54,367 bases of DNA, from contig JAYUEN010000113.1 in assembly GCA_043739185.1 (NCBI GenBank), positions 1 to 54,367 of the forward strand, read 5' to 3'. Below, piece after piece: positions 1-38,927 of the stretch. Source of the DNA: Bdellovibrionales bacterium (GTDB taxonomy: Bacteria > Bdellovibrionota > Bdellovibrionia > Bdellovibrionales > JAMPXM01). The notes below the pieces were generated by a model. That model did no database searches, was not told where the DNA came from, and was given only the letters and a program-made list of their open reading frames with translations. Each line of letters starts with the position of its first letter. The first letter of the stretch is position 1. Position numbers and translations under genes: made by a program.

Positions 1-20
1 AAAAATGCCCGTATCACCCC

Positions 21-52
21 AAAAATACCCTAGGGAGAGAATCCCCCTAGGG
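21..52 (-). terminator. Intrinsic terminator of the flagellin-1 transcript
   Basis: Minus strand reads CCCTAGGGGGA-TTC-TCTCCCTAGGG followed by TATTTTT, about 125 nt after the flagellin stop. Confidence 0.75.
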
Positions 53-175
53 CGGGCTTAAGAGTAGAGTCTGTGGGCTACTACTCCAAATTCTAATAAA
101 AACTAAAATCAAAACTAATAAAAAAATTAAGTACGCTGACAAGCGGAGCGACGACTTGCTCACTCCACTTAAGTT

Positions 176-1000
176 TTATAACAACTTAAGTGCTGAGGCG
201 GGTGATTGATTCGCCTGCGCCATCACTGAAATCGCTGCCTGTTGCAAGATCGATGAAGAGGTCATTTCTGAACTCTCAAAGGCAACATCGGCATCCCTCA
301 ATCGAGAATTCGCAGCTGATAAGTTTTCAAATTGAATATCTAAGTTTGACGTAGTTGTATTCAATCGGCTTTGTACGGCACCAAAGTCCGCACGCATTTT
401 ACCAACTTTACCTAAAGCATCGTCAACCATTCCGAGCGCATCCCGAGCGTCTCCTTTAGACTCAACATTCAAACTGCTGATTCCAAGAGTGCTGTTAGTT
501 GCATCTGCATTTAAACTATATTTAATGACATTTTCTTCGCCAGCAAATGCTCCCACTTGGAACTCCAATTGCTCGCCTGAACCGTCGAGTAAAATTTTAT
601 TACCAAATCGAGTCGTTTTCGCAATCCGATCCGACTCTGCGGTGAGCTGCTTAACCTCTTGATTTAAGAAGCCCCGCTCAGTATCTCCGATATTATCTGA
701 AGCCGCTTGCACTCCAAGTTCGCGCAATCTGATCAAGATATTGCTGATCTCATTGAGACCGCCTTCACTCACTTGCACGAGTGAAATTGCGTTATTAGAG
801 TTGGATCTCGCTTGTGCAATACCACGAGTTTGACCTCGGATATTCTCTGAAATGGCGAGACCGGCGGCATCGTCGGATGCCGATACGATTCTACTACCTG
901 ATGACAATGCTGCGAGTGCATGTGCATTTCGCTTCTGCTGCACTCCTAAGTTTCTTTGCGCGTCGATCGCCGCAATATTCGTCGAAATTCTTAAGCCCAT
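176..1000 (-). CDS. fliC: Flagellin (274 aa, short type)
   Basis: MGLRISTN...LSSGSRI..A.DDAAGLAISE N-terminus and RADFGAVQSRL...SRLRDAD.A.E C-terminus. Start moved to ATG 1000 (GGGGG SD upstream), which gives the same length as the paralog. Confidence 0.97.
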   Translation of the reverse strand: MGLRISTNIAAIDAQRNLGVQQKRNAHALAALSSGSRIVSASDDAAGLAISENIRGQTRGIAQARSNSNNAISLVQVSEGGLNEISNILIRLRELGVQAASDNIGDTERGFLNQEVKQLTAESDRIAKTTRFGNKILLDGSGEQLEFQVGAFAGEENVIKYSLNADATNSTLGISSLNVESKGDARDALGMVDDALGKVGKMRADFGAVQSRLNTTTSNLDIQFENLSAANSRLRDADVAFESSEMTSSSILQQAAISVMAQANQSPASALKLL

Positions 1001-1299
1001 AAAGCCCCCTACATGAAATTCGAATCCATTCTTGCCCACAACGCACACGCATTTGTTCCCTATGAACAAGGCGCACACTTCATCCATGCATAAAGTTTTC
1101 TAAAACTTTTAAAAAATTAAAATTTTAAAACTTCACTAACATTTATTTGGCACTCGATATTGAGTGCTGGGCTGGAGACAAGCTCTCTCCCTTAAGCAGT
1201 GACTGCTACTTAAGAGAGGGAACCATCTTTTGAAGAGGGGTATTTTCAGTGACTGCTGAAATACTTTCTTCGGAGACTGTCCAACCGTGTTCATACAAC

Positions 1300-1326
1300 T
1301 GATCGGACCTAGGTCTAGAAACTTTA
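1300..1326 (-). promoter_or_regulatory. Sigma-28 (FliA) promoter of flagellin 1
   Basis: TAAA-N15-TCCGATCA on the minus strand, matching TAAA-N15-GCCGATAA with exact spacing. Confidence 0.8.
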
Positions 1327-1428
1327 GTCTTTAGTCTAGTCTAGTTTTTGGCGTAGCGCGTCTTCTCGCTAGTATTACTAGAAAATGGCAAATAAAAAAT
1401 ATTTTATTTTTCTGGATAAAGGTCTAGT

Positions 1429-1848
1429 TTAACGCGCCGAATTATGAAATGTCAGCAGGCACCTTTGGGTAACGCTACCCAGAATCGCTGCAGCACCAAT
1501 GCTTTCAGCATCAATACTTATGAAGTCGACGAGTTCGGTGGTTTCTGCTCCTGATTTTTGAATGACAAAATGATTTGCCGAATTGGCTTGAGCAATTGGA
1601 ATGTCATTCGCCTTGGCAAGATCAATCAATTTTTGGTTTTGATTGAGGTCCGCTTTATTAATCTGCTCGAAAGAAATTCCGGGAAAGTTGGATTCAACCT
1701 TACTTTCTTTTCTTGTCACTGAAATGGAGTTATTTGATGAGTCGAAGTTGGCTATAAATTCTAAGCTACTTGAAATTTTGCAATCAACGCTAACAACTGA
1801 AAATGCTTGTGAACTAATAAGCAAAGTAGCAAATAAAAAAGTTTTCAC
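1429..1848 (-). CDS. Hypothetical secreted protein
   Basis: 139-aa ORF with Sec-type signal peptide MKTFLFATLLISSQAFS and an AGAGG SD. Confidence 0.7.
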   Translation of the reverse strand: MKTFLFATLLISSQAFSVVSVDCKISSSLEFIANFDSSNNSISVTRKESKVESNFPGISFEQINKADLNQNQKLIDLAKANDIPIAQANSANHFVIQKSGAETTELVDFISIDAESIGAAAILGSVTQRCLLTFHNSAR

Positions 1849-1970
1849 GAAAAGCCTCTCTTTGTCTGCGCAGCCATTGCGTGACCCAAGAATAGGTTCT
1901 TCTTATTTCATATTCAAGAATTAAAATCTGGCAAATAATTCACAGAATAATTTCCGCATTTTTAAAGACA

Positions 1971-2795
1971 TTACAGTAGTTTCAAGGACTTTTGAGGTTC
2001 TTGGTTCGCCTGTGCCAAAACAGCAACGCCGAACTCTTTTAAAATTTGCCCGCGTGCAAGTTCTGAAGTTTCAAATGCCACATCTGTATCCACAATTCTC
2101 CCTCGAGCCGCAGAAATATTTTCGTATTGTTGATCTAAATTATTTCCTGCAATTTCAAGTCTACTTTGAATAGCGCCGAAGCCCGCCCTGGTTTTTGAAA
2201 TTTTAGCTATGGCACTATCAATATCTGCCAAATTGCTTTTGGCATCGCCTTTATCCGCAATCGTAAGTCCCGAAACGCCAAGAGAAGAGCCGGTTGTATC
2301 GGCGTCCATTTTATAGCGAATCACATCTTGCTGACCATTTTGCGTTCCCAGGTGAAATTCATATTCTGTACTATCACCTTGCAAGAGTTGTTTGCGACCA
2401 AAGGTAGTGGTCTTTGCAATACGATCTACCTCGCTTGTAAGCCCGGTGAATTCTGTATTGAGATACTCTCTCTCGTCATCACCCACAGTATCGCTAGCCG
2501 CCTGAATTGCGAGTTCACGCAGTCTAATCAAAATATTATTTTGTTCGTTGAGCCCGCCCTCAGCAACTTGGATCAATCCCTTTGCGCCTTCGGCATTATT
2601 TTTTGCTTGTTTTAAGCTAGAGGCTTGTCCCCGAAGGACTTCGCTGATTGCAAAGCCCGCGGCATCGTCTCCGGCTGAGACAATTCTTGAGCCTGACGAA
2701 AGTGCCTCTAAGGCATGATCCGTCGCTTTTTGCGCCTTCCCCAACTGCCGTTGGGCAGCTATGGATGCGACATTCGTTCCGATTCGTAAACCCAT
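1971..2795 (-). CDS. fliC: Flagellin (274 aa, paralog 2)
   Basis: Conserved flagellin N- and C-terminal helical motifs and a GAGAGGT SD. Confidence 0.97.
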   Translation of the reverse strand: MGLRIGTNVASIAAQRQLGKAQKATDHALEALSSGSRIVSAGDDAAGFAISEVLRGQASSLKQAKNNAEGAKGLIQVAEGGLNEQNNILIRLRELAIQAASDTVGDDEREYLNTEFTGLTSEVDRIAKTTTFGRKQLLQGDSTEYEFHLGTQNGQQDVIRYKMDADTTGSSLGVSGLTIADKGDAKSNLADIDSAIAKISKTRAGFGAIQSRLEIAGNNLDQQYENISAARGRIVDTDVAFETSELARGQILKEFGVAVLAQANQEPQKSLKLL

Positions 2796-2944
2796 TGGAC
2801 ACCTCTCTTCTGAAAGAATGAGAAGTAGCCCACAGACGATTGTTTTTTAAATTCACACGCGCATACGCACGCATCTATTTATGTCTCAATTACATGAGCC
2901 CTATTCCAGGCAATTGAGAAGAAAGATTTCAGCAGTCTTGGATT

Positions 2945-2971
2945 TTATCGGACGCGATGCGTCTTAACTTA
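2945..2971 (-). promoter_or_regulatory. Sigma-28 promoter of flagellin 2
   Basis: TAAG-N15-TCCGATAA on the minus strand. Confidence 0.8.
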
Positions 2972-2991
2972 AATAAATATTTTGCAGAGCG

Positions 2992-3687
2992 TTAAACCTC
3001 TACAATTAAAAGACTTTCCCGATGTACCTGAAGGGATAGTGCAAGCATTGTCTGCATTTGCTCACTCGCCAATACAAACTCTATTCCCCATCTTTCACCA
3101 CCTGAGTAGGGGCCAATATGACGAACAATTCCGTTCAGATCCGAAACTGCTCTCACCGGATGATGAATTCGACATTTGACGTGTTGATTGAGCTTCCCTT
3201 TTCCCTGCAATGAAGTTGGTACGACCGCCGAAATTCCTCCGGCACTAATGTCGGTTACCATGAGCTCTGAGGGGGTACTCCCTTCACCAACGCCTTCAAT
3301 TAGGAGTTTCAACGTATTCAACTTCAATGTATTGACCCGAAAATTTCGGCGCCGCTGAAGCCGTCTGAGCTCGGTATTGAGAGTAAAAATCACATCGTCA
3401 CCAATGGTATAATCCACAGGTCCTCGCATCGCATACTGCCCAGAGGCGATTGAAAAAATCATATAAACAATTTCATCTTTTTTGATTTTGCGAGTTTGCT
3501 CAACCGGGGTCATATACAAAGCTTGTTTTTCAAGCCGAATAAAACGAAAGGTAAAAGTGAGATCATCGTCGGTAACCAACATCAAAGAAGAAGGAGCCTT
3601 TACCAGGTCTTTGAATGCCGCCAAACGATCATTATCATTTTTTAATACTTCAAATACTTCAAATAGCTTTTTAGCCTCTATACTCAT
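2992..3687 (-). CDS. PilZ-domain (YcgR-like) c-di-GMP-binding protein
   Basis: QRRRNFRV (RxxxR) and DISAGG (DxSxxG) motifs, plus a C-terminal GIEF. Confidence 0.9.
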   Translation of the reverse strand: MSIEAKKLFEVFEVLKNDNDRLAAFKDLVKAPSSLMLVTDDDLTFTFRFIRLEKQALYMTPVEQTRKIKKDEIVYMIFSIASGQYAMRGPVDYTIGDDVIFTLNTELRRLQRRRNFRVNTLKLNTLKLLIEGVGEGSTPSELMVTDISAGGISAVVPTSLQGKGKLNQHVKCRIHHPVRAVSDLNGIVRHIGPYSGGERWGIEFVLASEQMQTMLALSLQVHRESLLIVEV

Positions 3688-3729
3688 GCAAATATTTTGA
3701 CTTATTTTTTGATAATTACCAAGTCGGGC

Positions 3730-4143
3730 TTACAAAAATTTATTGATGCAAGTCCCAATGACGACACTATTATAATCCGCAACCCAAGCATAAGTTTCAA
3801 GCGCTCGCCGCAAGTGTTCTTGTGGTGCCGGAGAGAGAATGTGCTCTTTCAATTTAAGATCTTTTACCTGGACCCCCGTTTGAGTTTCCTGCGGAACTGC
3901 CGTTGGTTTGGCTTTACGTTCGCGCTTAATATAATCAGCTAAACGCAAAATCCCTTTTTTCGTTTCATCACTTTGTGTATTGAAATCCTCTGGTGGAGGG
4001 GATTGGACTTCTAATATTTGCGCTACCTTGGGTGGCTCAAGTTTTTCTGATTCACGTTTTACTTTAGACGCAGGTGGAACCATAAATGTCGCAATTTGTG
4101 ACAGTTGTGATTCTGAAAATAGTCCTGCATTTTGGTCGCTCAA
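3730..4143 (-). CDS. Hypothetical protein
   Basis: 137-aa ORF with a GAGGGA SD, downstream of a sigma-28 motif and upstream of the PilZ gene. Confidence 0.6.
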   Translation of the reverse strand: MSDQNAGLFSESQLSQIATFMVPPASKVKRESEKLEPPKVAQILEVQSPPPEDFNTQSDETKKGILRLADYIKRERKAKPTAVPQETQTGVQVKDLKLKEHILSPAPQEHLRRALETYAWVADYNSVVIGTCINKFL

Positions 4144-4195
4144 CTGAACATCCCTCTGATTTCTCGTTAGAAGAAATTTGGAGCTCGACTATCTC

Positions 4196-4222
4196 CTATC
4201 GGAAGGTCCAGATTAAATATTA
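4196..4222 (-). promoter_or_regulatory. Probable sigma-28 promoter for the hypothetical + PilZ genes
   Basis: TAAT-N15-TCCGATAG on the minus strand. Confidence 0.6.
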
Positions 4223-4278
4223 ATACGATGCGTTAGCGCAATGAACTTATTATGTTTTGTAGATCTTTGTGGTCGCTA

Positions 4279-4314
4279 CGGGCGGTGCCCCTATGGCCCT
4301 TGCGGGCGGTGCCC
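4279..4314. repeat. 12-bp GC-rich direct repeat (CGGGCGGTGCCC x2)
   Basis: Exact copies at 4279-4290 and 4303-4314, just after the meaB stop. Confidence 0.7.
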
Positions 4315-4317
4315 ATT

Positions 4318-5220
4318 TCAAAATGGATCATGTGAAAGTACTTTTGCCAAATCTTCAAAGTTTGCAATCTGATCTGAAATGAGATGAATCTTTTTCTCCA
4401 TTTGATTTCGGAGCAAGGCACGAGCTTCGGCGCGTATTCGCTTAAGACTCATACGCGCTTTTTGCCAATCAGCTTTGGCTCTTTGGCTTTCAAGCAGCTG
4501 AAAAAATTCTTTTACTCCTTGAGCTTGCGTTGCGATCATCGAAATAATTTGGGATTGCATGGCATGAGGCCGTGGATCTAAGTGCAAAGATTGCTCGAGT
4601 TCATTTCTGAAACTTTCAGCACCGGGACGATCAAATTTATTTACAATGAAAAGCTCGGCAATTTCTAATAGGCCGGCCTTCATAGCCTGAATTGAATCTC
4701 CTGATTCCGGAACCAAAACAACACTTACAAAATCGGCAACATTCATAATCTCTAATTCGGTCTGCCCAACGCCAACCGTTTCGATTAAAACGAAATCAAA
4801 TCCTGCCAAGTCAAATGCTCTTACCATTAGGTAAGCCGAGGCACTGAGCCCCCCAAGACTTCCTCGAGAGCCGAGCGATCTAATAAATACTTTGGGGTCT
4901 GAAAAGTGTTCGGTATAGCGAATGCGATCACCTAAGACCGCGCCTTTAGAAAATGGGCTTGAGGGGTCGACCGCGATGATTCCAACTGAGAGATTTTGAC
5001 TGCGAATTTCAGATATCAATTTTGAAATGAGGGTCGATTTTCCGGCTCCGGGAGGGCCCGTAATACCTACCCGAAAAGAGAGTTTTTTCGCCTTATTCAA
5101 ATCAGGATGTAGGGAGAGTTCTTTTGGGCCTTCGCGTTCAAGTACGCTGAGCAGTTTTGCGAGGGCGGTAAAATCCTGTTGCTTGACTCGCTCAATTAGC
5201 TGCTGTGTTTGGTCACTCAT
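4318..5220 (-). CDS. meaB: Methylmalonyl-CoA mutase-associated GTPase MeaB/ArgK
   Basis: GITGPPGAGKST P-loop, AVDPSSPFSKGAVLGDRIR, IETVGVGQ and NKFD motifs. Confidence 0.95.
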   Translation of the reverse strand: MSDQTQQLIERVKQQDFTALAKLLSVLEREGPKELSLHPDLNKAKKLSFRVGITGPPGAGKSTLISKLISEIRSQNLSVGIIAVDPSSPFSKGAVLGDRIRYTEHFSDPKVFIRSLGSRGSLGGLSASAYLMVRAFDLAGFDFVLIETVGVGQTELEIMNVADFVSVVLVPESGDSIQAMKAGLLEIAELFIVNKFDRPGAESFRNELEQSLHLDPRPHAMQSQIISMIATQAQGVKEFFQLLESQRAKADWQKARMSLKRIRAEARALLRNQMEKKIHLISDQIANFEDLAKVLSHDPF

Positions 5221-11869: not shown

Positions 11870-13504
11870 ATGATTTTAAATTCTAAACTTTTGGCCTTCT
11901 TGATTGCAGGGATTCTTTCTTCAAGCGTGGCTTGGTCGATGCCAAAAGCCAAATCTAAATCCGGAAAGATAGACCAGGTAACTTATGCAAAAATTGTTGA
12001 GGAGCTCTCACCGAAGATCAGTCATACAGCCGAGGAGCCACTTTATACTCCTGCTGAAATTGAAAAGATAAAAACTGAAATTGCGAACCAAAGAACACCT
12101 GCCACTGGTGACGGCACAGCCGCAAGCCAAGAGTTCAAAGATTTAGCAGACGAACTTTTAAGAATAAGTTCTGCGCCTCGCCCCTCGTTTGACAAACCTG
12201 AACTATTGACCACCAATACAGATCGACTCGAGATTTTTTTGGCTAAATTAGAACACGACTATAAGGATTATAAAAATACCGATACCAAGCTTTTTGCTTC
12301 ACAATTTATTCCGCTCAGAACTTTACGCGGAGTCGTCTGGAAAATGATCGGCTTATTTCAAGACCGTGACACTCGACCCGCTCACTCATTGGCTTTAACA
12401 GCCTTTAAGAGTTTTGCCGGGCAAATGAATATTGCCATCCCAGATAAGTCCTGGGAAGTAGGTTTTGATTACATCACCCAACCCTATGTTCGAGACATGG
12501 TAACCAAAGATGGCTCTAGCATCGAACTTTCAAAGGCGTTTGCAGATCTCGCTGAGTTTCAGGGCTTCATGGCTCAATTTCGCGAGGTACTTGAAACCTC
12601 ACGAACGCAACTATTTGAATTGAAGGTATCAGACGGCGGGCCCGTTGTTCTCTGGGATCAAAAAGTTTTCTTTGGACCAAAGAGTTTAAAAGATGACCTC
12701 AAGAGATATAAAAGAGTTGGTGAGCTAGAAAAGCAATTGATGCTTTCAAATCTCTTTTTTACACTTTCACAGCTGGATTTTATGTTGGCTTATAGTCTTA
12801 ATGGCGCACTTGATTTGTCGACCAAAATTGGTTGGACCTTTGGTATTGACGGCCAATTTATAGCTGGCGTTGAAGGTGTGACCGCCCAAGACTTTCACGA
12901 TAAAATTTTAAAGCAGCATCCTGAAGTTGGAATTGGAATGAACAATAGAGTGGCTAAGGTGCAGGAGGCCTTCAAAAATCTAAAACACGCCACCGGAACC
13001 CTCGAATTGGCTTGGGAAAGGACAAAAGAGAGCCGAAATGGCGGAGTTTGGCTCTTGAATTCAGGTTATGTGCTGCGCGATCGCTCCTTTGTCGATTCAA
13101 AATTCATAGACTTTGCAAGAGCTCTTAAAAATCGAGTCATGATTAAGAATAGCATTACGGGTGAAGAAGCGATGGTTGATATTCCTGCATTTTTAAATTC
13201 TGGCGGGCCTAAAAAACTTGCGGACTTACTTCCCACGAGCTTCACTCCAGGTCTTAAAGGAAATTCAGAGTGGATCACAATAGTTTTAACTGACAGCAAT
13301 AAAGTGCAACATACTTCTGAATTTCGTGATTATCGCAAGGGCAGCCCACGAGGATATGATCGTTCAAAATTTGCTTTGTTATTTCCCAATTTAGCGAAGC
13401 CCGAATTCAATAATGATCAAGAGCTCAACAGATCTCTTCGAGTCCTCAATTCAGTTTTAGGAAATTTTACTGCCATTAGTCTCCTCGGTGGAGTTCCACA
13501 ATAG
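11870..13504 (+). CDS. Large hypothetical secreted protein
   Basis: 544-aa ORF, AAGGAG SD, signal peptide ending SVAWS; no recognised domain. Confidence 0.8.
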   Translation: MILNSKLLAFLIAGILSSSVAWSMPKAKSKSGKIDQVTYAKIVEELSPKISHTAEEPLYTPAEIEKIKTEIANQRTPATGDGTAASQEFKDLADELLRISSAPRPSFDKPELLTTNTDRLEIFLAKLEHDYKDYKNTDTKLFASQFIPLRTLRGVVWKMIGLFQDRDTRPAHSLALTAFKSFAGQMNIAIPDKSWEVGFDYITQPYVRDMVTKDGSSIELSKAFADLAEFQGFMAQFREVLETSRTQLFELKVSDGGPVVLWDQKVFFGPKSLKDDLKRYKRVGELEKQLMLSNLFFTLSQLDFMLAYSLNGALDLSTKIGWTFGIDGQFIAGVEGVTAQDFHDKILKQHPEVGIGMNNRVAKVQEAFKNLKHATGTLELAWERTKESRNGGVWLLNSGYVLRDRSFVDSKFIDFARALKNRVMIKNSITGEEAMVDIPAFLNSGGPKKLADLLPTSFTPGLKGNSEWITIVLTDSNKVQHTSEFRDYRKGSPRGYDRSKFALLFPNLAKPEFNNDQELNRSLRVLNSVLGNFTAISLLGGVPQ

Positions 13505-32053: not shown

Positions 32054-32605
32054 TTATTTCAGCTCAGGAATAATCGTCGGCTGCAAATTACTAACGGTTT
32101 CAGGAAGTTTTATAGCAACTCCCCAATCAGAAGCACGACTTTTGATTGAAGCTTTGGGATTGCTAACCAGGCGCTGCTGAAGTTTCGCAAAAATTGGCTC
32201 TTTGATTGCCAAGCTATTATCTTGCAAAACACACTGACGTGCAATTTTACGATCAATATTAATTACGATTGGCGCTTTCATATTGGCTGTCATCAAAGTC
32301 GGATCATTTGGTATTGTAATAATCGAGAAAAACCTGGTGCGCTCATTTGCGGCCAATTTAATCGCCTCAATATCATGACGAGTCAGCGCCACTTGATAAT
32401 TCTGTATAAATAGTTCTGGTTCTAGAATTGGAAAGGCAATATCGGCAGACTCACAGCTTTGCAACCAAGCAAAAATCTCATCGTGCGGATCATCAAGAAG
32501 AACAAATCGACGAAGATTTGCAAATCCTAAAATCCCCTCGAAGAAATCTAAAACATCTTCTTCTTTAATCTCAACAGGTCCGAATCTGGATGTCTGAATG
32601 AGCAT
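32054..32605 (-). CDS. fliW: Flagellar assembly factor / CsrA antagonist FliW
   Basis: IQTSRFG, F.EGILGF, WLQS and TANMKAPIVIN; GGAGGG SD before ATG 32605; adjacent to csrA. Confidence 0.95.
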   Translation of the reverse strand: MLIQTSRFGPVEIKEEDVLDFFEGILGFANLRRFVLLDDPHDEIFAWLQSCESADIAFPILEPELFIQNYQVALTRHDIEAIKLAANERTRFFSIITIPNDPTLMTANMKAPIVINIDRKIARQCVLQDNSLAIKEPIFAKLQQRLVSNPKASIKSRASDWGVAIKLPETVSNLQPTIIPELK

Positions 32606-32741
32606 AGAAATCCCCCTCCACTTGAGGATGACCAAAAAGTCTCTCAATTATTGAGACACCTCAAGCCAATCGACCGGTGAGTTGTGAACTGCTTTTATAA
32701 AAAAATAGTACCCAACATCTAAAAGTATGAATGATTTTTTT

Positions 32742-32770
32742 CAATCGGCAAGAAAAATTACTAGACTTTA
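32742..32770 (-). promoter_or_regulatory. Possible sigma-28 promoter of fliW
   Basis: TAAA-N17-GCCGATTG; the spacing is 2 nt longer than consensus. Confidence 0.35.
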
Positions 32771-32828
32771 GAAGGATTAAGTCTCGCCTTGCGTTAGTAT
32801 AAAAAATTGAACTGCTTTTGGGAGCTTT

Positions 32829-33056
32829 CTAGGGCTTCAAAAGCTTGGCAACAGCTCTCGTATTTTCGGATGAAGATTTTGAGGACTCTTCATTCTGGCT
32901 CTGAATGGCCACATAGACTTCTTCACGATGAATTTTGGTATCCTTAGGGGCTTCTATCCCAAGTCTAACTTGTTTACCCTTAATTTGGACTATTCTGATC
33001 TTGATATGATCATCGATGGCGATACTCTCACCAAGTTTGCGTGTCAGAACTAACAT
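32829..33056 (-). CDS. csrA: Carbon storage regulator CsrA
   Basis: [12 protein letters not shown]...[10 protein letters not shown]...IHREEVY. Confidence 0.98.
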
Positions 33057-33202
33057 GAGATAAACTCCTTCAACATCCAGGTCAAAGTTGAATTAATGAG
33101 ACTTATTGCCACATGAATCCAAAACAAGATCTGTTCAAGATTTGAACTTTTCTCGTCAATTACATTTACGGTAAAAGCGAATCGAAACATTAGCTATAAT
33201 TG

Positions 33203-34321
33203 CTAACGGAGAAAGTCAAGAAGACTCGGCTGGATCAATTTACCAGATGTGGCAAGGGTCGCTTTAAGGGCACTTTCAGATTTATTAATATCGCTAACCA
33301 GCTGAAATGTATCCGCGTCTTCGATGTTTGAAGACATGGTTTTGGCGTCAATGGTCCCCTTAGAAATGCTCTCTGTTGCCGCATTCAAGGTACCAACTCT
33401 AGACCCAAGTTCAGCTCTCGAAAGTACAACCTGTTCTAGGGCTGTATCAATCTTATCAATAGATTCTTGAATAGAAGGCTTGTCATTGGTCCGGAGCGCA
33501 ATTTCAAAGCCCTTTAAGACACTGAAAATATCAATGCCCCGCTCCGCCAATTTGCGCTCTAGCTCCGCCTGTTTTTTCGAAAGCTCATCAGCACTCTCAG
33601 GGCTCATCTGCTTTTCTGAAGCGGGAGCTCGAATCGCAGGAAGCTCATAATCAGGAACTTGCAATGTTTTGCGTTCTCTTATGGGTTTTTCATGTTGAGG
33701 AGCCATTGGAGCTTGATTTGGAGAAGAAAAATTTTGGGAAGAGTCAGGGCCGGCATCCGCAGGAGCCTTTAAACCTCTTCCCAAAAACACAAGATTGCCA
33801 GGAATATTCATGGCAAGTTTTGCTTCTTTATCTATAATAATTTCCATTAGGCCGTTGTCACCATGGTAATTACCTTCTGGATCAAAGGGCGGCTGCTGCG
33901 TTCTATATCCACCAAATAAAAAGCGATCACCTAGCTTTCGATTTCCGATTTGAATAGATTGGGATAAGAGCTGTGCAACTTCACTTGCAACCAACTCTCT
34001 GGATTTTGGTCCGGATGAGGCATCATTGGCTTGATTGATGGCAAGTTCTTTTGCGCGAATAAGAGCGTCGCTTAGTTCGCCAAGCGACTGTTCCGAATAC
34101 TCGAGAAAAGCCTTTGCTCCCGATATAGATTTTAAAAACTGATTGTTTCCGTTCACCTCAGTACGCATGCCAAGCACTCGAGTTGCGCCCAATGGATCAT
34201 CCGATGGCTTGGTCACCTTTTTTTGCAAAGCCGCTTGATTTTGCAACTCCGACATCTCAGAACGATTTCGTCCTAAGTTGGTGGTGACTTGCTCATAATT
34301 CATTTTATCAGCGATGCGCAT
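33203..34321 (-). CDS. flgL: Flagellar hook-associated protein 3
   Basis: KPSDDP, FLFGG...PPF and RAELGSR...S.IEDAD...SLLDFLR. Confidence 0.96.
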   Translation of the reverse strand: MRIADKMNYEQVTTNLGRNRSEMSELQNQAALQKKVTKPSDDPLGATRVLGMRTEVNGNNQFLKSISGAKAFLEYSEQSLGELSDALIRAKELAINQANDASSGPKSRELVASEVAQLLSQSIQIGNRKLGDRFLFGGYRTQQPPFDPEGNYHGDNGLMEIIIDKEAKLAMNIPGNLVFLGRGLKAPADAGPDSSQNFSSPNQAPMAPQHEKPIRERKTLQVPDYELPAIRAPASEKQMSPESADELSKKQAELERKLAERGIDIFSVLKGFEIALRTNDKPSIQESIDKIDTALEQVVLSRAELGSRVGTLNAATESISKGTIDAKTMSSNIEDADTFQLVSDINKSESALKATLATSGKLIQPSLLDFLR

Positions 34322-34328
34322 TTAGTTC

Positions 34329-35756
34329 CTAAAGTCGTTTTAAATTTAATACCGTATCCATCATTTCATCTGCGGTCTTAACGATTCGAGCTGAGGCATC
34401 AAAGGCTTTTTGAAACTCGATCATTTTGGTGGTCTCTTCATCGAGACTCACACCACTGATGCTTTCACGAATATTCGCAAGTTGCTTAACAATGCCGTCT
34501 TGCGCATCGTGTGCATTATTGGTTTTCTTCGCAATGACGCCCACTTTACCGACCATGGTATTGTAGTACTCATCCACACTTGCATTGCCATCTGAGAGAA
34601 TTTTTTCGTATTGCAGTCCTGCAATTTTATTGGCAATGCGATTGTCCCCTGAGGCGCCGGCTTTTTCTCCAGCTGCTATGCGCGAAGAGTCCTTTAAAAT
34701 ATCGTCATTGAGTTTTAAATACTGCGAAGCATGTTTGACATCCATCGGCTGCTCAAAGAAATCAACACCGGTTTGATTATAAGAATTGAATCCCTTTGAG
34801 TGGATATCATTGACCTCGTCAGCCAGGGTATAAGCCATTTCATCAACGCCGTCTTTTAAGTCGTTGATAATCGTATCTCGCACCTCAAGTAACCCACCAA
34901 TCGATCCGCCGTGCAATTGCTCGGTGACTTTAAAAGGTGAAGCGTATTCTGAGCTTTTGTACATAATATCGAAATTTCCTTCGCCCTTGTTTTCAGATTC
35001 AGGAGTCGATTGTACAAATAACTGTTTGGCATCATAGCCCGCCACCAGCAGAGCATTATTGCCAGCTGAAACGGTGACGGTGCCATCCGCTCCCTCGGCC
35101 CAGCGAATATTTACCTTTTCACCCAATTTTTTAACTAATAGATCGCGGCGATCACGCTCATCATTTGCAGAGGCACCAGTCAATTCAACAGTCTGAATTT
35201 TCTCGTTGAGGCTTGCAATTTCGGTCGACATTCCGTTGATCTCATTCACATGAGTTTTTATTTGTTGATCGAGATCACTTTGAACGCCGGTGAGCTGTGC
35301 ATTGATGCGTTTGAAATCTTTCGTCACATAGTCGGCAGTCTCTTTTACCAGAGATCTTGTTGCCAGACTTTCAGGATTATTTGAAAGTTCACGAAAGGCA
35401 TTGAAGAACTCAGACATAAATTGATTGAGACCCTTGTTGACCTGTTCATTATAGATAGACTCGACCCGAGTCATAGCATCTTGTTTGCCTGACAAATAAC
35501 CTAAGTGAGATTCTTCAACGCCAATTTGTCTTTCAAGATAGGGATTATTGACCCGATTGATTGCGGCCGCTTTTGCACCCATCCCCACTCTGAGTTTGCC
35601 TTCACCTATTGGGAGATTGGTGACTTGATCAACACGTTGACGAGAATATCCTTCAACACTTTTGGAAGCGATGTTATGGCCAACGGTTTGCAACGCCGTC
35701 TGAGAATTCATCAGAGAGCGTTTTCCCATATCCATTAGGGCGTTGATTTTTGACAT
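34329..35756 (-). CDS. flgK: Flagellar hook-associated protein 1
   Basis: TVGHNIA....GYSRQRV and RESISGVSLDEE...FQKAFDASARI. Confidence 0.97.
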   Translation of the reverse strand: MSKINALMDMGKRSLMNSQTALQTVGHNIASKSVEGYSRQRVDQVTNLPIGEGKLRVGMGAKAAAINRVNNPYLERQIGVEESHLGYLSGKQDAMTRVESIYNEQVNKGLNQFMSEFFNAFRELSNNPESLATRSLVKETADYVTKDFKRINAQLTGVQSDLDQQIKTHVNEINGMSTEIASLNEKIQTVELTGASANDERDRRDLLVKKLGEKVNIRWAEGADGTVTVSAGNNALLVAGYDAKQLFVQSTPESENKGEGNFDIMYKSSEYASPFKVTEQLHGGSIGGLLEVRDTIINDLKDGVDEMAYTLADEVNDIHSKGFNSYNQTGVDFFEQPMDVKHASQYLKLNDDILKDSSRIAAGEKAGASGDNRIANKIAGLQYEKILSDGNASVDEYYNTMVGKVGVIAKKTNNAHDAQDGIVKQLANIRESISGVSLDEETTKMIEFQKAFDASARIVKTADEMMDTVLNLKRL

Positions 35757-35787
35757 CCTGTCCTCTGTCCGCTCAGCACTTCATGCG

Positions 35788-36315
35788 CTAAACTTCTTTT
35801 CTAACCAAATTCCCAGCCGCATCTGATTTTTGCGGCAACATCGATCCTTGTTTTGCGTAGGTAGGTTTTGCCTGCAAAGTATCGCGAATCGCAGACATCG
35901 CCCCGGTGATATTTTTCAAAGCACTACTCACCAATTCTTCATTCTGTTTATTCACTTCACTGACTCTTTTGATAAGCAAATCTAAAACAGAGTGAAGGTT
36001 TCTCAAGCGATCGCCTTTGCTCTCTTCAAGTTTTGACGCTAGCTCGAGCAAGCGTGGCTGATCGACATCCGTTCCAGTTGCAAGAGCTAAATCACGCGCA
36101 CACTTCATGCGCGAGTTTTCGAGCGAACGTACGCGAACTAAAATGGCATCTTTGGCTTTGTTATTCTCATTGAGATCTTCAATTTTGGCCGCTACCAAAA
36201 TGTCCTTTTCCTTACGCACAATTTCAAGCAGGGCACGATAAGCCTTGATCAATTGATCTAAGTTTTCAGAGAGGAGCTGGTAAATTTCGTCTTTTCTTGC
36301 ATCCATGTTATTCAT
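35788..36315 (-). CDS. flgN: Flagellar export chaperone FlgN
   Basis: Helical protein with N..N..L and TY...G; lies between flgM and flgK. Confidence 0.85.
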   Translation of the reverse strand: MNNMDARKDEIYQLLSENLDQLIKAYRALLEIVRKEKDILVAAKIEDLNENNKAKDAILVRVRSLENSRMKCARDLALATGTDVDQPRLLELASKLEESKGDRLRNLHSVLDLLIKRVSEVNKQNEELVSSALKNITGAMSAIRDTLQAKPTYAKQGSMLPQKSDAAGNLVRKEV

Positions 36316-36350
36316 CCTTAAAGAACATAGTTAAAATTTTAAAATCAAAT

Positions 36351-36665
36351 TTAAGAAGGCATTAATAAATGCTCATCGACCATTTTGTCTGCAATTGCAG
36401 ACGCGTCGACATTGTATTTTCCTTCATCTATCATTTTTTGAAGTCGAGCTACTTTTGCTTCATCAACAGTATTGTCTGGCGTAGCAAGTTCTTTTGCTTT
36501 TTTAATACTTTGTGCACGTTCGGACAATTCTACTTTCGATGAGTCTCCGAGTGCTGATGCGCCGACTGATTTTTTATCACGGGCACCATCGACACCGACT
36601 TTTGCAGACTTCGCAGAATCAATATTTGCGGCATTTGCGGTGCTGGTTTTGTTTGATACTTTCAT
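36351..36665 (-). CDS. flgM: Anti-sigma-28 factor FlgM
   Basis: VELSERA and KVARLQKMIDEGKYNVDASAIADKM. Confidence 0.95.
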   Translation of the reverse strand: MKVSNKTSTANAANIDSAKSAKVGVDGARDKKSVGASALGDSSKVELSERAQSIKKAKELATPDNTVDEAKVARLQKMIDEGKYNVDASAIADKMVDEHLLMPS

Positions 36666-36740
36666 TAGACCCTCCGTGGGTTTAAATACCTAAGCTCACT
36701 CTTATTGTATCATAGTGAGACAATGAATTACGAGGGCTAT

Positions 36741-37520
36741 TTATAGGCCGAGATTGGGTTCTTGCTCTTTGTCTGGTTGGCGCGGAAGTGCCGCTTCTTG
36801 AACTGGTGCCGAAAGATTCCAAAAAAAGGATTTAATTTCAGGACTTAGAGTTGCGATTGGCGTGCCTTGTTTGAGCTCCGCATTTTTTGGAAGTGACAAA
36901 AAGACGCCATCAAAAATGAAGGTAGATTTGAAGCCACCATGATGCTCCATGGTCACGGCAGTTTTGCCATCTAACATTTTACTTTGAGAAACAAATTTTC
37001 CGTCCCAAGGAAGCTGCACTTGAGTCGGAGTACCTTCTGCATTTTCTTTGAGTTCAATCTTAAGCGGCATTTGAGACTTTTGGCTAGTTGGTAGCGCTCG
37101 AACATGAGAAACATCTTTGTCAGTCAACTTCATCATGCCGCCAGCCTTAAGCGCTTTCATGCCTGGAGTATTGTCAAAGTAGCGCTCCATGAGTTGGTCG
37201 TAAATAAGCTTTTGCATTCCGACCCCACCTTGATCTCCCCACGCTTCGACATATTGATTATCAAGTTCTTCACGATATATTTTTTCACCCATGCTGGGCT
37301 TCATATAACCCATCTCTCCTGAGCCACGCATAGCCTTTACCATTTCTCTCAAAAATTGCTTTTCATAGAGTTTTGCAACTTCATCAACTTTTTGATTGCG
37401 AGGAGCTAAAGCAGGTTTTTCGGCGCCAGGAATAATTTGTTCTGCACGAGCGTTCTCAACACGTTCACGCTGAGCCGAAGGCTGTGCTAAATTTGCTTTA
37501 TCTATTTTCCCAATACTCAT
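36741..37520 (-). CDS. flgJ: FlgJ-like rod-binding protein with degenerate M23-like C-terminal domain
   Basis: Rod-binding motif YEKQFLREMVKAMR...IYREELD..Y....GG.GM...IY.QL; follows flgI. Confidence 0.85.
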   Translation of the reverse strand: MSIGKIDKANLAQPSAQRERVENARAEQIIPGAEKPALAPRNQKVDEVAKLYEKQFLREMVKAMRGSGEMGYMKPSMGEKIYREELDNQYVEAWGDQGGVGMQKLIYDQLMERYFDNTPGMKALKAGGMMKLTDKDVSHVRALPTSQKSQMPLKIELKENAEGTPTQVQLPWDGKFVSQSKMLDGKTAVTMEHHGGFKSTFIFDGVFLSLPKNAELKQGTPIATLSPEIKSFFWNLSAPVQEAALPRQPDKEQEPNLGL

Positions 37521-37548
37521 TTGTACCTTTGATTAGACCATCATAATT

Positions 37549-37670
37549 CGGGGTTGTGATTTTGAATCAGATCAAGGCGCGATGACTGAGGAGACCGAGC
37601 CGTAGTTCCTCTACGGCGCAGGGTAACCGAAGGAAGAGCAACGAAGAGCTGATTCAAAAGCGCAAGCCCG
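37549..37670. repeat. 122-bp palindromic element (MITE/REP-like), copy A
   Basis: Terminal inverted repeats match at 19/22 positions; central hairpin GCCGTAG-TTCCT-CTACGGC. Confidence 0.75.
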
Positions 37671-37682
37671 CACAAGAAAAAA

Positions 37683-37860
37683 GGGGAGATGAGAGAGAAA
37701 CCTATGTGCATCCTGCACTTACTCTGAGCCCAAAGTCTTTCACCATCTCTGGCTTAGCTGACTTTTCTTTCTGTTTCCTGCTCGAAACGTATGGCCCTAT
37801 CCATCCTGGTTAAGATCTCTAACTCAACTTCCCCCGCACTTAAACACATCCATGTGTTCA
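37683..37860 (-). ncRNA. Candidate CsrA-binding structured RNA (CsrB/RsmZ-like, or a flgJ leader)
   Basis: Four GGA-bearing hairpins or motifs: AACACATGGATGTGTT, CCAGGATGG, GTTTCGAGCAGGAAAC and GTGCAGGATGCAC; no ORF is called in this gap. Confidence 0.5.
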
Positions 37861-37916
37861 AGTTAAACCGTCTTCTCATTTATTTTATGTCATTTTGTCT
37901 CATATCAAAACACTTT

Positions 37917-38927
37917 TTATAAAATTTCGAGCTCGGCCTGGAGCGCGCCGGCTGCTTTCAAATTTTGTAATATCGTAATCAGGTCCTTTGGCGAGACTCC
38001 GAAAGTATTAAGTGCTTTTACTAAGTCACCAACACTTGTTCCGGTGTCTAGAACTGCAACTCTTTCACCAGACTGGTCTTTACCTTTCGATTTTGCTGTG
38101 CCCTCCACCTTAACCGTGAGATCACCGTGAGAAATCGCAACTCGTGAAATTTTCACATTATCGCCTATCACAACCGTCCCGGTCTTTTCGTTCACCACAA
38201 CACGCGCACGGATATCAGGCGCAACATCTAAATTTTCAATCGCCGCCAGCAATTCGACGGCTCTGCCTTCATACGAAAATGGCACCACGATATCGACGGT
38301 CCCAGCGTCCTTTGCTGAAGCGTATTTTCCTGAGAGATCTAAATTAATGCGCTTTGCGAGTCGCGCAGCCGTCGTAAAATCAGGATTGTGCAGTGTTAAA
38401 CGAAACATTTTTTTATTTGTAAAATCCTCACCGACATCGCGCTCGATAATAGCGCCATTTGGGAGTCTCCCTACCGTGGGATGCACATCTGCACCACTTC
38501 CAACAAGAATGGCACCTTGCCCGACTGCATAGACTTGTTGATCCGCAGCTCGTAGCGGGCTCTGCACAAGAGTGCCGCCAGCGAGACTCGAAGCATCTCC
38601 TATTGAATTGACAGTGATATCAATGCGATTTCCGGCTCTTCCAAATGGAGGCAAAGTGGCGGTTATTAAAACGGCCGCGACATTTTTACTGGCCACTTCT
38701 TTTTCTTCGAGCTTCATGCCAACTTTATCAAAGAGCCTAAACATTGATTTATTGGTGAATTCATTTTTGCTATCGCCAGTACCCTTTAGGCCAACAACTA
38801 TTCCGTATCCGATGAGCTGATTGTCTCGAACTCCTCGGACATTGGCGATATCTTTGATCCGAGCGGCATGCACGATCGAACCCAAAAATAAAAAAACAAG
38901 AATTTCAAACAACAACAAACTTTTCAT
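37917..38927 (-). CDS. flgI: Flagellar P-ring protein
   Basis: ARIKDIA...GVRDNQLIGYGIVVGLKGTGD and LK.AGALQAELEIL. Confidence 0.98.
   Translation of the reverse strand: MKSLLLFEILVFLFLGSIVHAARIKDIANVRGVRDNQLIGYGIVVGLKGTGDSKNEFTNKSMFRLFDKVGMKLEEKEVASKNVAAVLITATLPPFGRAGNRIDITVNSIGDASSLAGGTLVQSPLRAADQQVYAVGQGAILVGSGADVHPTVGRLPNGAIIERDVGEDFTNKKMFRLTLHNPDFTTAARLAKRINLDLSGKYASAKDAGTVDIVVPFSYEGRAVELLAAIENLDVAPDIRARVVVNEKTGTVVIGDNVKISRVAISHGDLTVKVEGTAKSKGKDQSGERVAVLDTGTSVGDLVKALNTFGVSPKDLITILQNLKAAGALQAELEIL

Follow-up and report, generated by a model that had tools for sequence, protein, structure and literature searches.

The 3′ end of a Bdellovibrionales flagellin mRNA is a conserved structured RNA with complementarity to a sister flagellin leader and to its own start codon

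Results and discussion

The mRNA of a Bdellovibrionales flagellin gene, fla1, ends in a conserved structured RNA that, judged by alignment with relatives, is under selection and whose family is absent from Rfam 15. It holds two antisense stretches: seed S1 is complementary to the leader of a sister flagellin gene, fla2, and seed S2 to the start codon of fla1 itself. The first of these had been pointed out in a preliminary description of this DNA. Comparative sequence evidence indicates that the observation is real, conserved and compensated by paired changes, and that the element is richer than first read. The explanation we lean towards is a two-seed 3′-end RNA that would raise fla2 expression by strand displacement and lower fla1 expression, assisted by a contact from the fla1 5′ leader.

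Flagellin genes of the window

By "the window" we mean the whole stretch of DNA analysed, 54,367 nucleotides of a Bdellovibrionales bacterium (assembly GCA_043739185.1, contig JAYUEN010000113.1, positions 1–54,367); its genome, labelled G000, measures 4.85 Mb and is 97.65% complete. The two flagellin genes lie on the minus strand, with fla2 upstream of fla1, and their proteins are 57% identical. Their promoters are called sigma-28-like by comparison with what we take to be the sigma-28 consensus.

176–1000, minus strand: fla1, flagellin of 274 aa (Pfam Flagellin_N/C), start at 1000 assigned by homology; host mRNA of the 3′ element
176–178, minus strand: fla1 stop codon
1971–2795, minus strand: fla2, flagellin of 274 aa, Pfam-supported; predicted target mRNA
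1300–1326, minus strand: sigma-28-like fla1 promoter, TAAA-N15-TCCGATCA, conserved 5′ of fla1 in relatives
2945–2972, minus strand: sigma-28-like fla2 promoter, TAAG-N15-TCCGATAA, conserved in relatives

Structure and distribution of the 3′ element

The element is about 65 nt long and is made of a hairpin (P1), a linker and a terminator.

61–87, minus strand: hairpin P1 (predicted fold); seed S1 lies in its 5′ arm and loop, and seed S2 overlaps the last part of its 3′ arm
53–63, minus strand: linker between P1 and the terminator; seed S2
21–53, minus strand: terminator-like hairpin and U tail (terminator scan; stem 53–27), the 3′ end of the element
88–126, minus strand: U/A-rich stretch (from sequence), directly 5′ of P1
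140–171, minus strand: 12-bp hairpin after the fla1 stop, with a U7 run that starts 13 nt 3′ of the stem

In an alignment of 45 elements, 94% of the cells in P1 are paired, with double-sided changes at six of seven pairs; the corresponding values for the terminator are 90% and five of seven. None of 500 shuffles matched the paired fraction, and slid controls reached at most 54%. The U/A-rich stretch is, by its sequence, a possible endonuclease entry site. The hairpin at 171–140 was considered as a terminator and judged non-canonical, being absent from the terminator-scan list with its U7 run 13 nt away; partial termination there is possible.

Tandem flagellin loci of relatives were chosen by protein, and a motif derived from them was scanned in 185,579 species genomes. 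The element is present after 65 of 74 fla1-type flagellins and after 0 of 105 other flagellin starts, 71 of which have long trailers. Truncation accounts for six of the nine fla1-type genes without a detected element and a pattern miss for two, and G004 is truly without; no element was seen in G025 and G037 either. Among the 80 matches listed of the 101 in the motif scan, 41 sit 27–856 nt past the end of a flagellin match, and one further flagellin-linked stretch is cut by a contig end; 41 of these 42 flagellin-linked matches, among those listed, carry Bdellovibrionota-type labels. The 38 of 80 listed matches that have no nearby flagellin were taken as chance. Run on a phylum sample, a covariance model of the element (R1) matches 25 of 30 genomes of the same order, a few of which had served to train it, and 9 of 9 genomes of genus g36. 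Weak matches were returned in 17 of 120 genomes of other orders, and strong ones in the phylum sample are confined to the order of the window. Searched against Rfam 15, window positions 1–5000 gave three weak matches far below the gathering score, and L252 and L071 gave none.

Complementarity of seed S1 to the fla2 leader

69–86 (core 82–69), minus strand: seed S1, antisense to fla2 leader 2837–2820
2820–2837, minus strand: stretch of the fla2 leader targeted by S1: the anti-SD arm, preceded by a short toehold (2837–2833)
2796–2832, minus strand: SD-hiding hairpin of fla2 (predicted fold, z −3.3), which buries the SD GAGAGG (2807–2802)

On the minus strand, positions 82–69 are the exact reverse complement of 2837–2824, the 14-nt match from which the preliminary description had started. 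The pairing that it had extended past a mismatch and a bulge holds as well, with one U·U mismatch, 3 bp (86–84 with 2820–2822), a 3-nt bulge and 5 bp to 2815; of this, the cofold minimum-energy structure retains only the first 3-bp extension beyond the core. The fla1 stop (176–178), the terminator stem 53–27 with its U tail and the SD-blocking hairpin (2832–2796) also lie where they had been placed. Overlooked at that stage was that the antisense stretch is itself the 5′ arm and loop of the element's own hairpin P1 (87–61). The S1 14-mer occurs at these two sites only in the 4.85-Mb genome; a third match, on contig C381, was discarded as the same locus again, within a 98-nt contig overlap. Among 20,000 random 147-nt genome windows, seven complement the 175-nt trailer over at least 14 nt.

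Cognate pairings were compared with permuted ones in 50 genomes that have both the element and an upstream-flagellin leader, clustered at 75% fla2 identity into 31 lineages. Left out beforehand were G025, G033 and G037, where the first gene is not fla2-like, and L117, where the flagellin matches are broken; G016, G019 and G034 lacked a leader, a trailer or a detected element. Across the 31 lineages the proposed complementarity is conserved and covaries. The cognate duplexes sum to −1161 kcal/mol versus −962 ± 23 kcal/mol when permuted (0 of 100,000 permutations; z −8.5), a significance that permutation overstates because the lineages are kin. The 20 protein-selected lineages alone give −801 versus −652 kcal/mol, and four control pairings in the same genomes gave z-scores between −1.3 and +0.3. 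Three columns that flank the invariant S1 core are Watson-Crick in 24 of 27, 19 of 28 and 16 of 27 cases, versus 9.6, 10.4 and 8.2 when permuted, and the first of them, 3 nt 5′ of the core, contains A-U (11), C-G (9), U-A (3) and G-C (1) pairs.

In some genomes the site has been replaced as a whole. G051, found by protein and not by the motif, forms 23 of 24 S1 pairs between partners 4 kb apart, with the CCC/GGG core swapped for a U/A run in both partners. Other replaced sites occur in G010, G026 and G038, and in G034 the core is missing from both partners (co-loss). G033 is a further case of co-loss: the adjacent upstream flagellin is absent, the P1 loop is without S1, and S2 is retained. Replacement of the whole S1 site in separate families, as these genomes appear to record it, is hard to explain by descent. 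Weak S1 sites, with a helix score under 8, were found in G012, G021, G022, L111 and L145. In G009, G012 and G022 (L047, L051 and L050), the P1 3′ arm and not the loop best complements the fla2 leader (13–17 nt), a register shift within one clade.

Predicted effect of S1 on fla2 translation

The S1 site covers the five nucleotides ahead of the fla2 SD hairpin and the 5′ arm of that hairpin. Its position varies among lineages from 19 to about 120 nt upstream, behind unrelated inserts, and folds run with coding context pair it with −18..+3 in 26 of 31 lineages. When the site is blocked, the predicted cost of opening −14..−5 falls by no less than 1 kcal/mol in 21 of 31 lineages, a drop that random blocks achieve in 4 of 31; a rise is predicted in one lineage, and 10 in all show no drop of that size. 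Counted by genome, the opening cost falls in 32 of 50. Medians for ribosome-binding site (RBS) opening in the run that compared blocking with random blocks were 7.4, 5.0 and 7.2, the 7.4 being the opening cost in kcal/mol over the 31 lineages. For the window itself, S1 binding drops the predicted RBS opening cost from 13.6 to 5.2 kcal/mol, with a net binding of the element to the fla2 leader of about −8 kcal/mol. The window dimer cofold contains a residual hairpin in which most SD bases are still paired (unpaired probability 0.05–0.5). Of the earlier claim that the trailer opens the fla2 SD in trans, the pairing and its aim at the anti-RBS arm thus stand, whereas the predicted opening of the SD is partial only. 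Because the folding models pair the S1 site with the fla2 ribosome-binding region in most lineages (the 26 of 31 above), activation of fla2 by S1 is the sign that we find them to favour, with some reserve.

The same pairing could carry the opposite sign. S1 would then block a ribosome standby site of fla2, or S1 and the 5′ loop described below would make RNase III substrates, and fla1 would silence fla2 as FlaX silences flaB. FlaX represses via upstream standby sites, according to the accessible part of its description (PMC11879080), and the partial freeing of the SD in the window would fit such a sign. So would the 4 of 50 genomes in which the S1 site ends no more than 20 nt from the start codon, and the S1 duplexes that span 16–23 bp in some genomes. 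However, S1 is aimed at the strand that, by prediction, pairs with the RBS region in 26 of 31 lineages, even at distances of 40–100 nt upstream with unrelated inserts between. When this strand is blocked, the RBS becomes costlier to open in a single lineage of the 31. We regard a negative sign as unlikely, if worth keeping in mind beside the activating one.

A second seed against the fla1 start codon

989–999, minus strand: S2 target, fla1 codons 1–4, M-G-L-R written GGC TTA AGA
1034–1040, minus strand: weaker S1 self-site in the fla1 leader, TGTGGGC at about −40

Also overlooked in the preliminary description, S2 (63–53) is antisense to the fla1 start at 999–989, through 10 Watson-Crick pairs and one G·U. 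RNA pairing across a start codon should block initiation, and from this modelled pairing we infer repression of fla1 by S2. The spelling GGC TTR AGn is used in 67 of 72 fla1-type M-G-L-R starts, but in 3 of the 48 other flagellins that begin with these residues; the genome background is 40 of 388 G-L-R tripeptides. A codon-level constraint that matches S2 is, on these counts, likely. S2 pairs at 10 or 11 of 11 positions in 55 of 65 elements, a figure that is partly circular because the linker helped to find the elements. Double-sided matching changes are seen in G034, G137, G143, G048 and five genomes of one clade, uncompensated C·A oppositions in G021, L103, L111 and L193, and poor pairing in G015, G023, G029, G031 and G039. 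A downstream flagellin starts GGC TTA AG(A) in G033 (L055) and G035 (L049) and GGC TTA CGA in G030 (L045); in these three genomes S2 may, from the match, reach a second paralog. The leader-start region on contig C8 of G000 contains a 17-nt imperfect match as well.

S2 appears from the matches to be distributed more widely than S1, and its aim is the start of its own mRNA. Four of five other-order matches inspected follow a flagellin with a matching start and keep S2 and the terminator, with S1 absent; G201, G209, G143 and G154, outside the order, are of this kind. Because the other-order matches keep S2 and the terminator without S1, S2 looks older than S1. In cofolds, S2 binds with −9.6 kcal/mol when P1 is intact and with −13.2 kcal/mol when the S1 half is removed, so a coupling of the two seeds through P1 opening is suggested.

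These observations bear on a reading in which the element is mainly a cis 3′-to-5′ clamp on its own mRNA, icaR-like, with S2 at the start codon and S1 at about −40, the fla2 mRNA being a decoy or trigger that tunes fla1. The persistence of S2 and the terminator outside the order without S1 would be expected of such a clamp, as would the keeping of S1 in genomes without a fla2-type gene. TGTGGG is also enriched in fla1 leaders, occurring in 35 of 88 (shuffled mean 4.4), in 32 of 40 fla2 leaders and in 0 of 66 other flagellin leaders. The motif is, however, missing from 53 of the 88 fla1 leaders, the S1 self-site showed no cognate specificity in the swap test (z −1.0), and a clamp leaves unexplained why the fla2 site is the anti-RBS arm. 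As the main function we consider it improbable; as an extra layer it is compatible with the two-seed explanation.

Genus g36 does not fit the two-seed explanation. Four g36 genomes have 5–6 flagellins, none of them fla2-type, yet the element, with an intact S1 core, is present in every one of the nine genomes of the genus that were sampled. In G056, neither 6 flagellin leaders nor strict-pattern searches yielded a strong S1 target. Strict searches for an S1 target gave 24 matches versus 31 in the control in G177, none of those inspected (all but one) being in a shared leader, and 7 versus 1 in G200, again with no match in a shared leader. The fla1 leaders of these genomes contain a bulged S1 self-site, recognised by eye only. 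In this genus S1 may act on fla1 itself or on an unfound target, or may be held by the structure of P1.

A predicted second contact between the fla1 and fla2 leaders

1251–1262, minus strand: APsRNA3-like module of the fla1 5′ leader, first loop; complementary to the outermost 5′ nucleotides of the fla2 mRNA
2926–2937, minus strand: start of the fla2 transcript as predicted, addressed by the fla1 first loop, just past the sigma-28-like promoter
1198–1207, minus strand: second loop of the fla1 5′ leader module, complementary over 9 nt to the leader of the flagellin on contig C8

The swap test for the first loop gave z −10.6 with the cognate ranked first in 15 (18 of 31 lineages parsable; run without composition control). 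Its predicted binding to the fla2 5′ end is −20 kcal/mol and does not open the SD. As for the second loop, GTGAYTG was seen again in the leader of the next flagellin downstream, in 5 of the 6 lineages examined.

Taken with their conservation and structure, the compensated complementarity of S1 and of the 5′ loop very probably reflects selected RNA pairing. The alternative at the DNA level is that these are inverted repeats, serving inversion or protein binding, or that they are matches by chance. Inverted repeats covary too, and two comparisons made on S1 failed to separate RNA from DNA pairing: G·U versus A·C oppositions in S1 helices (14 versus 9) do not discriminate, and the sense duplex is stronger than the antisense one in only 18 of 31 lineages. 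DNA inversion is nevertheless disfavoured, because no inverted arrangement was seen among the paired loci and because the partners lie 0.4–7 kb apart (intergenic gap) or on different contigs. Further against DNA repeats, the sites fall within covarying RNA helices and on initiation elements, and among 65 elements the S2 position that faces the U of AUG is occupied by A (31), G (32) or C (2), with U excluded by the search pattern. Against chance stand the 7 in 20,000 obtained for one genome. We hold the DNA-level and chance readings to be extremely improbable.

Two independent contacts between the same mRNAs, one of them at the extreme 5′ end, recall the hly–prsA2 pair, as far as the available text of PMC8722363 describes it. 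The pairings might accordingly serve chiefly to hold flagellin mRNAs together, for co-localisation or mutual stabilisation, with little effect on initiation. The measured positions of the two fla2 sites, which begin 25–40 nt from the end of the promoter in 10 of 17 lineages, would suit this. Against such tethering, S1 and S2 both fall on translation-initiation elements, and we think it very unlikely to be the main role.

Proposed mechanism

In the two-seed explanation, the element would act while still joined to the complete fla1 mRNA, after release as a processed 3′ fragment, or in both forms. The CCCACA loop of S1 would nucleate on the UGUGGG toehold of the fla2 leader and then zip through the anti-SD arm, weakening the hairpin that hides the RBS and so raising fla2. 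S2 would pair across fla1's own start codon and lower fla1. Opening of P1 on fla2 would free the 3′ end of P1 and strengthen S2, by which the two effects would be coupled, and the fla1 5′ leader would also cap the 5′ end of the fla2 mRNA. Overall, synthesis would pass from Fla1 to Fla2, and this would fix how much of each flagellin block enters the filament, or in what order, without Hfq or ProQ. We infer the coupling, the processing and the filament-order role from these models.

No match to PF17209 (Hfq) or PF04352 (ProQ) was found in G000 (97.65% complete), which encodes CsrA, FliW and one RNase E/G family gene. A two-seed RNA end thus sits in a genome where neither chaperone was found. The Bdellovibrio filament consists of ordered flagellin blocks, according to the accessible part of PMC2791853. 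Both fla1 and fla2 have sigma-28-like promoters, and transcription alone therefore need not explain the block order. The element would offer a base-by-base mechanism, its "on" seed directed at the sister flagellin and its "off" seed at the mRNA that carries it, and probably helps to hand filament building from one flagellin to another. A more specific version, which we put forward tentatively and hold to be rather doubtful, is a chaperone-free relay. The fla1 transcript would grip the fla2 leader by both ends, only completed fla1 transcripts would license fla2 translation, and the same strand displacement would expose the seed that shuts the fla1 start. If true, this would be a natural toehold-type switch that turns co-transcribed sigma-28 flagellin genes into a timed sequence, explaining ordered block filaments.

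Comparison with known RNAs

In the accessible text of Karunker et al. 2013 (PMC3627812), APsRNA3 lies just before and APsRNA4 just after Bd0604 of B. bacteriovorus HD100, a gene named fliC1 (PMC2791853, available part). Because the published APsRNA3 and APsRNA4 sequences flank homologous genes, fla1 appears to be the orthologue of FliC1/Bd0604. APsRNA3 corresponds to the fla1 5′ leader module. APsRNA4 is given there as 116-fold attack-phase specific at 3,500 RPKM, with Bd0604 at 11,984. Compared by eye, its printed sequence matches the start of the fla1 trailer in g36 and ends inside the P1 loop; beyond that end, the g36 trailers run on through S2 and the terminator. The printed sequence (Fig. 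S1) and the Table 2 coordinates of PMC3627812 are apparently offset by about 30 nt, and the table coordinates would take in both seeds. By this match the fla1 trailer corresponds to APsRNA4 and is transcribed in a relative, in the attack phase of B. bacteriovorus.

The statement in the preliminary description that no such RNA was known from Bdellovibrionota accordingly needs correcting: one was catalogued in 2013. In the part of PMC3627812 available, APsRNA3 and APsRNA4 are catalogued only, without target, structure conservation or function, and no homology is reported for them beyond B. bacteriovorus. The literature searched, which most subscription papers fall outside, contained no mention of APsRNA4 beyond its 2013 paper and no published function for the element or trailer. 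APsRNA4 would gain a candidate function from the pairings described here, and synonymous codons appear to be fixed by an RNA partner.

DsrA and RprA, Hfq-dependent stand-alone sRNAs, act on rpoS by pairing in trans with the strand that sequesters the RBS. The fla1 element resembles such anti-antisense activators in that the fla2 RBS is predicted to be sequestered in a stem (window z −3.3; median opening cost 7.4 kcal/mol over 31 lineages) and the element to pair with the sequestering strand (26 of 31). Unlike them, it is the terminator-linked end of a paralog's mRNA.

FlaX of Vibrio cholerae is, in the accessible part of PMC11879080, a ProQ-bound, RNase E-cut RNA of about 265 nt that represses flaB via SD and standby sites and shapes filament composition. 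Shared with it are origin in a flagellin 3′ UTR (here after 65 of 74 fla1-type genes and 0 of 105 others) and pairing with the leader of a paralogous flagellin, for which covariation argues here. In contrast to FlaX as described there, G000 yielded no match to ProQ (PF04352), the site addressed on the paralog is the anti-SD arm, the predicted effect is activation, and the host mRNA is itself the target of a second seed. As a precedent for the preliminary description, FlaX therefore holds for the flagellin 3′ origin and the paralog leader, while its sign, repression of the paralog, is the opposite one.

FliX of Escherichia coli, as far as PMC10578931 is available, likewise derives from the 3′ end of flagellin; it base-pairs with the flagellin mRNA and reduces flagellin levels. 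It is Hfq-bound, pairs inside the CDS and serves a single flagellin gene, whereas G000 has no PF17209 match and S2, by complementarity and codon constraint, would pair with its own flagellin mRNA at the start codon. In icaR of Staphylococcus aureus (PMC3868564, accessible part), a 3′ UTR motif likewise pairs with its own initiation region, and fla1 has such a 3′ motif. The icaR mRNA is repressed, as we would expect for S2; unlike S2, which spans codons 1–4 and would be coupled to a trans-acting seed, the icaR motif pairs with the SD and feeds RNase III. The hly 3′ UTR and prsA2 5′ UTR of Listeria monocytogenes (PMC8722363, available part) offer a further likeness, one UTR pairing in trans with the leader of another mRNA and coupling expression. 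That pairing differs in blocking RNase J1, in having one contact and in joining unrelated genes. The element is not a member of the FlaX, FliX, icaR or hly–prsA2 families, because the chaperones of those systems were not detected here and because the effect predicted for the paralog has the reverse sign to that of FlaX.

Genomic context

A 139-aa ORF without a Pfam match lies between fla2 and fla1 (window 1429–1848, minus strand). Similar ORF starts come after fla2 in three same-genus genomes, and most other relatives have a 400–500 nt gap at this place. On the 5′ side of fla2 are a PilZ-domain gene (2992–3687, minus strand) and a 137-aa ORF without a Pfam match (3730–4143, minus strand), the latter preceded by a sigma-28-like motif near 4215–4195, found by eye. 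A late flagellar cluster at 32054–38927 on the minus strand contains flgI, a rod-binding (FlgJ-like) gene, flgM, flgN, flgK, a flgL-like gene, csrA and fliW. The AUGGAUG in the fla1 leader near 1086–1080 resembles what we take to be a CsrA site, and CsrA/FliW control may overlay the flagellin RNA pairing.

Altered N-termini and GTG or shifted starts are found in fla2 orthologues (L082, L088, L096, L127, L132 and L147; L071, L092, L094 and L109). Because of them, fla2 may be evolving faster than fla1 and may be specialised. The end of the contig coincides exactly with the 3′ element, its 98-nt overlap with contig C381 of G000 covering window 1–98, and the G002 contig stops at the same letters, possibly at an assembly fork at the terminator.
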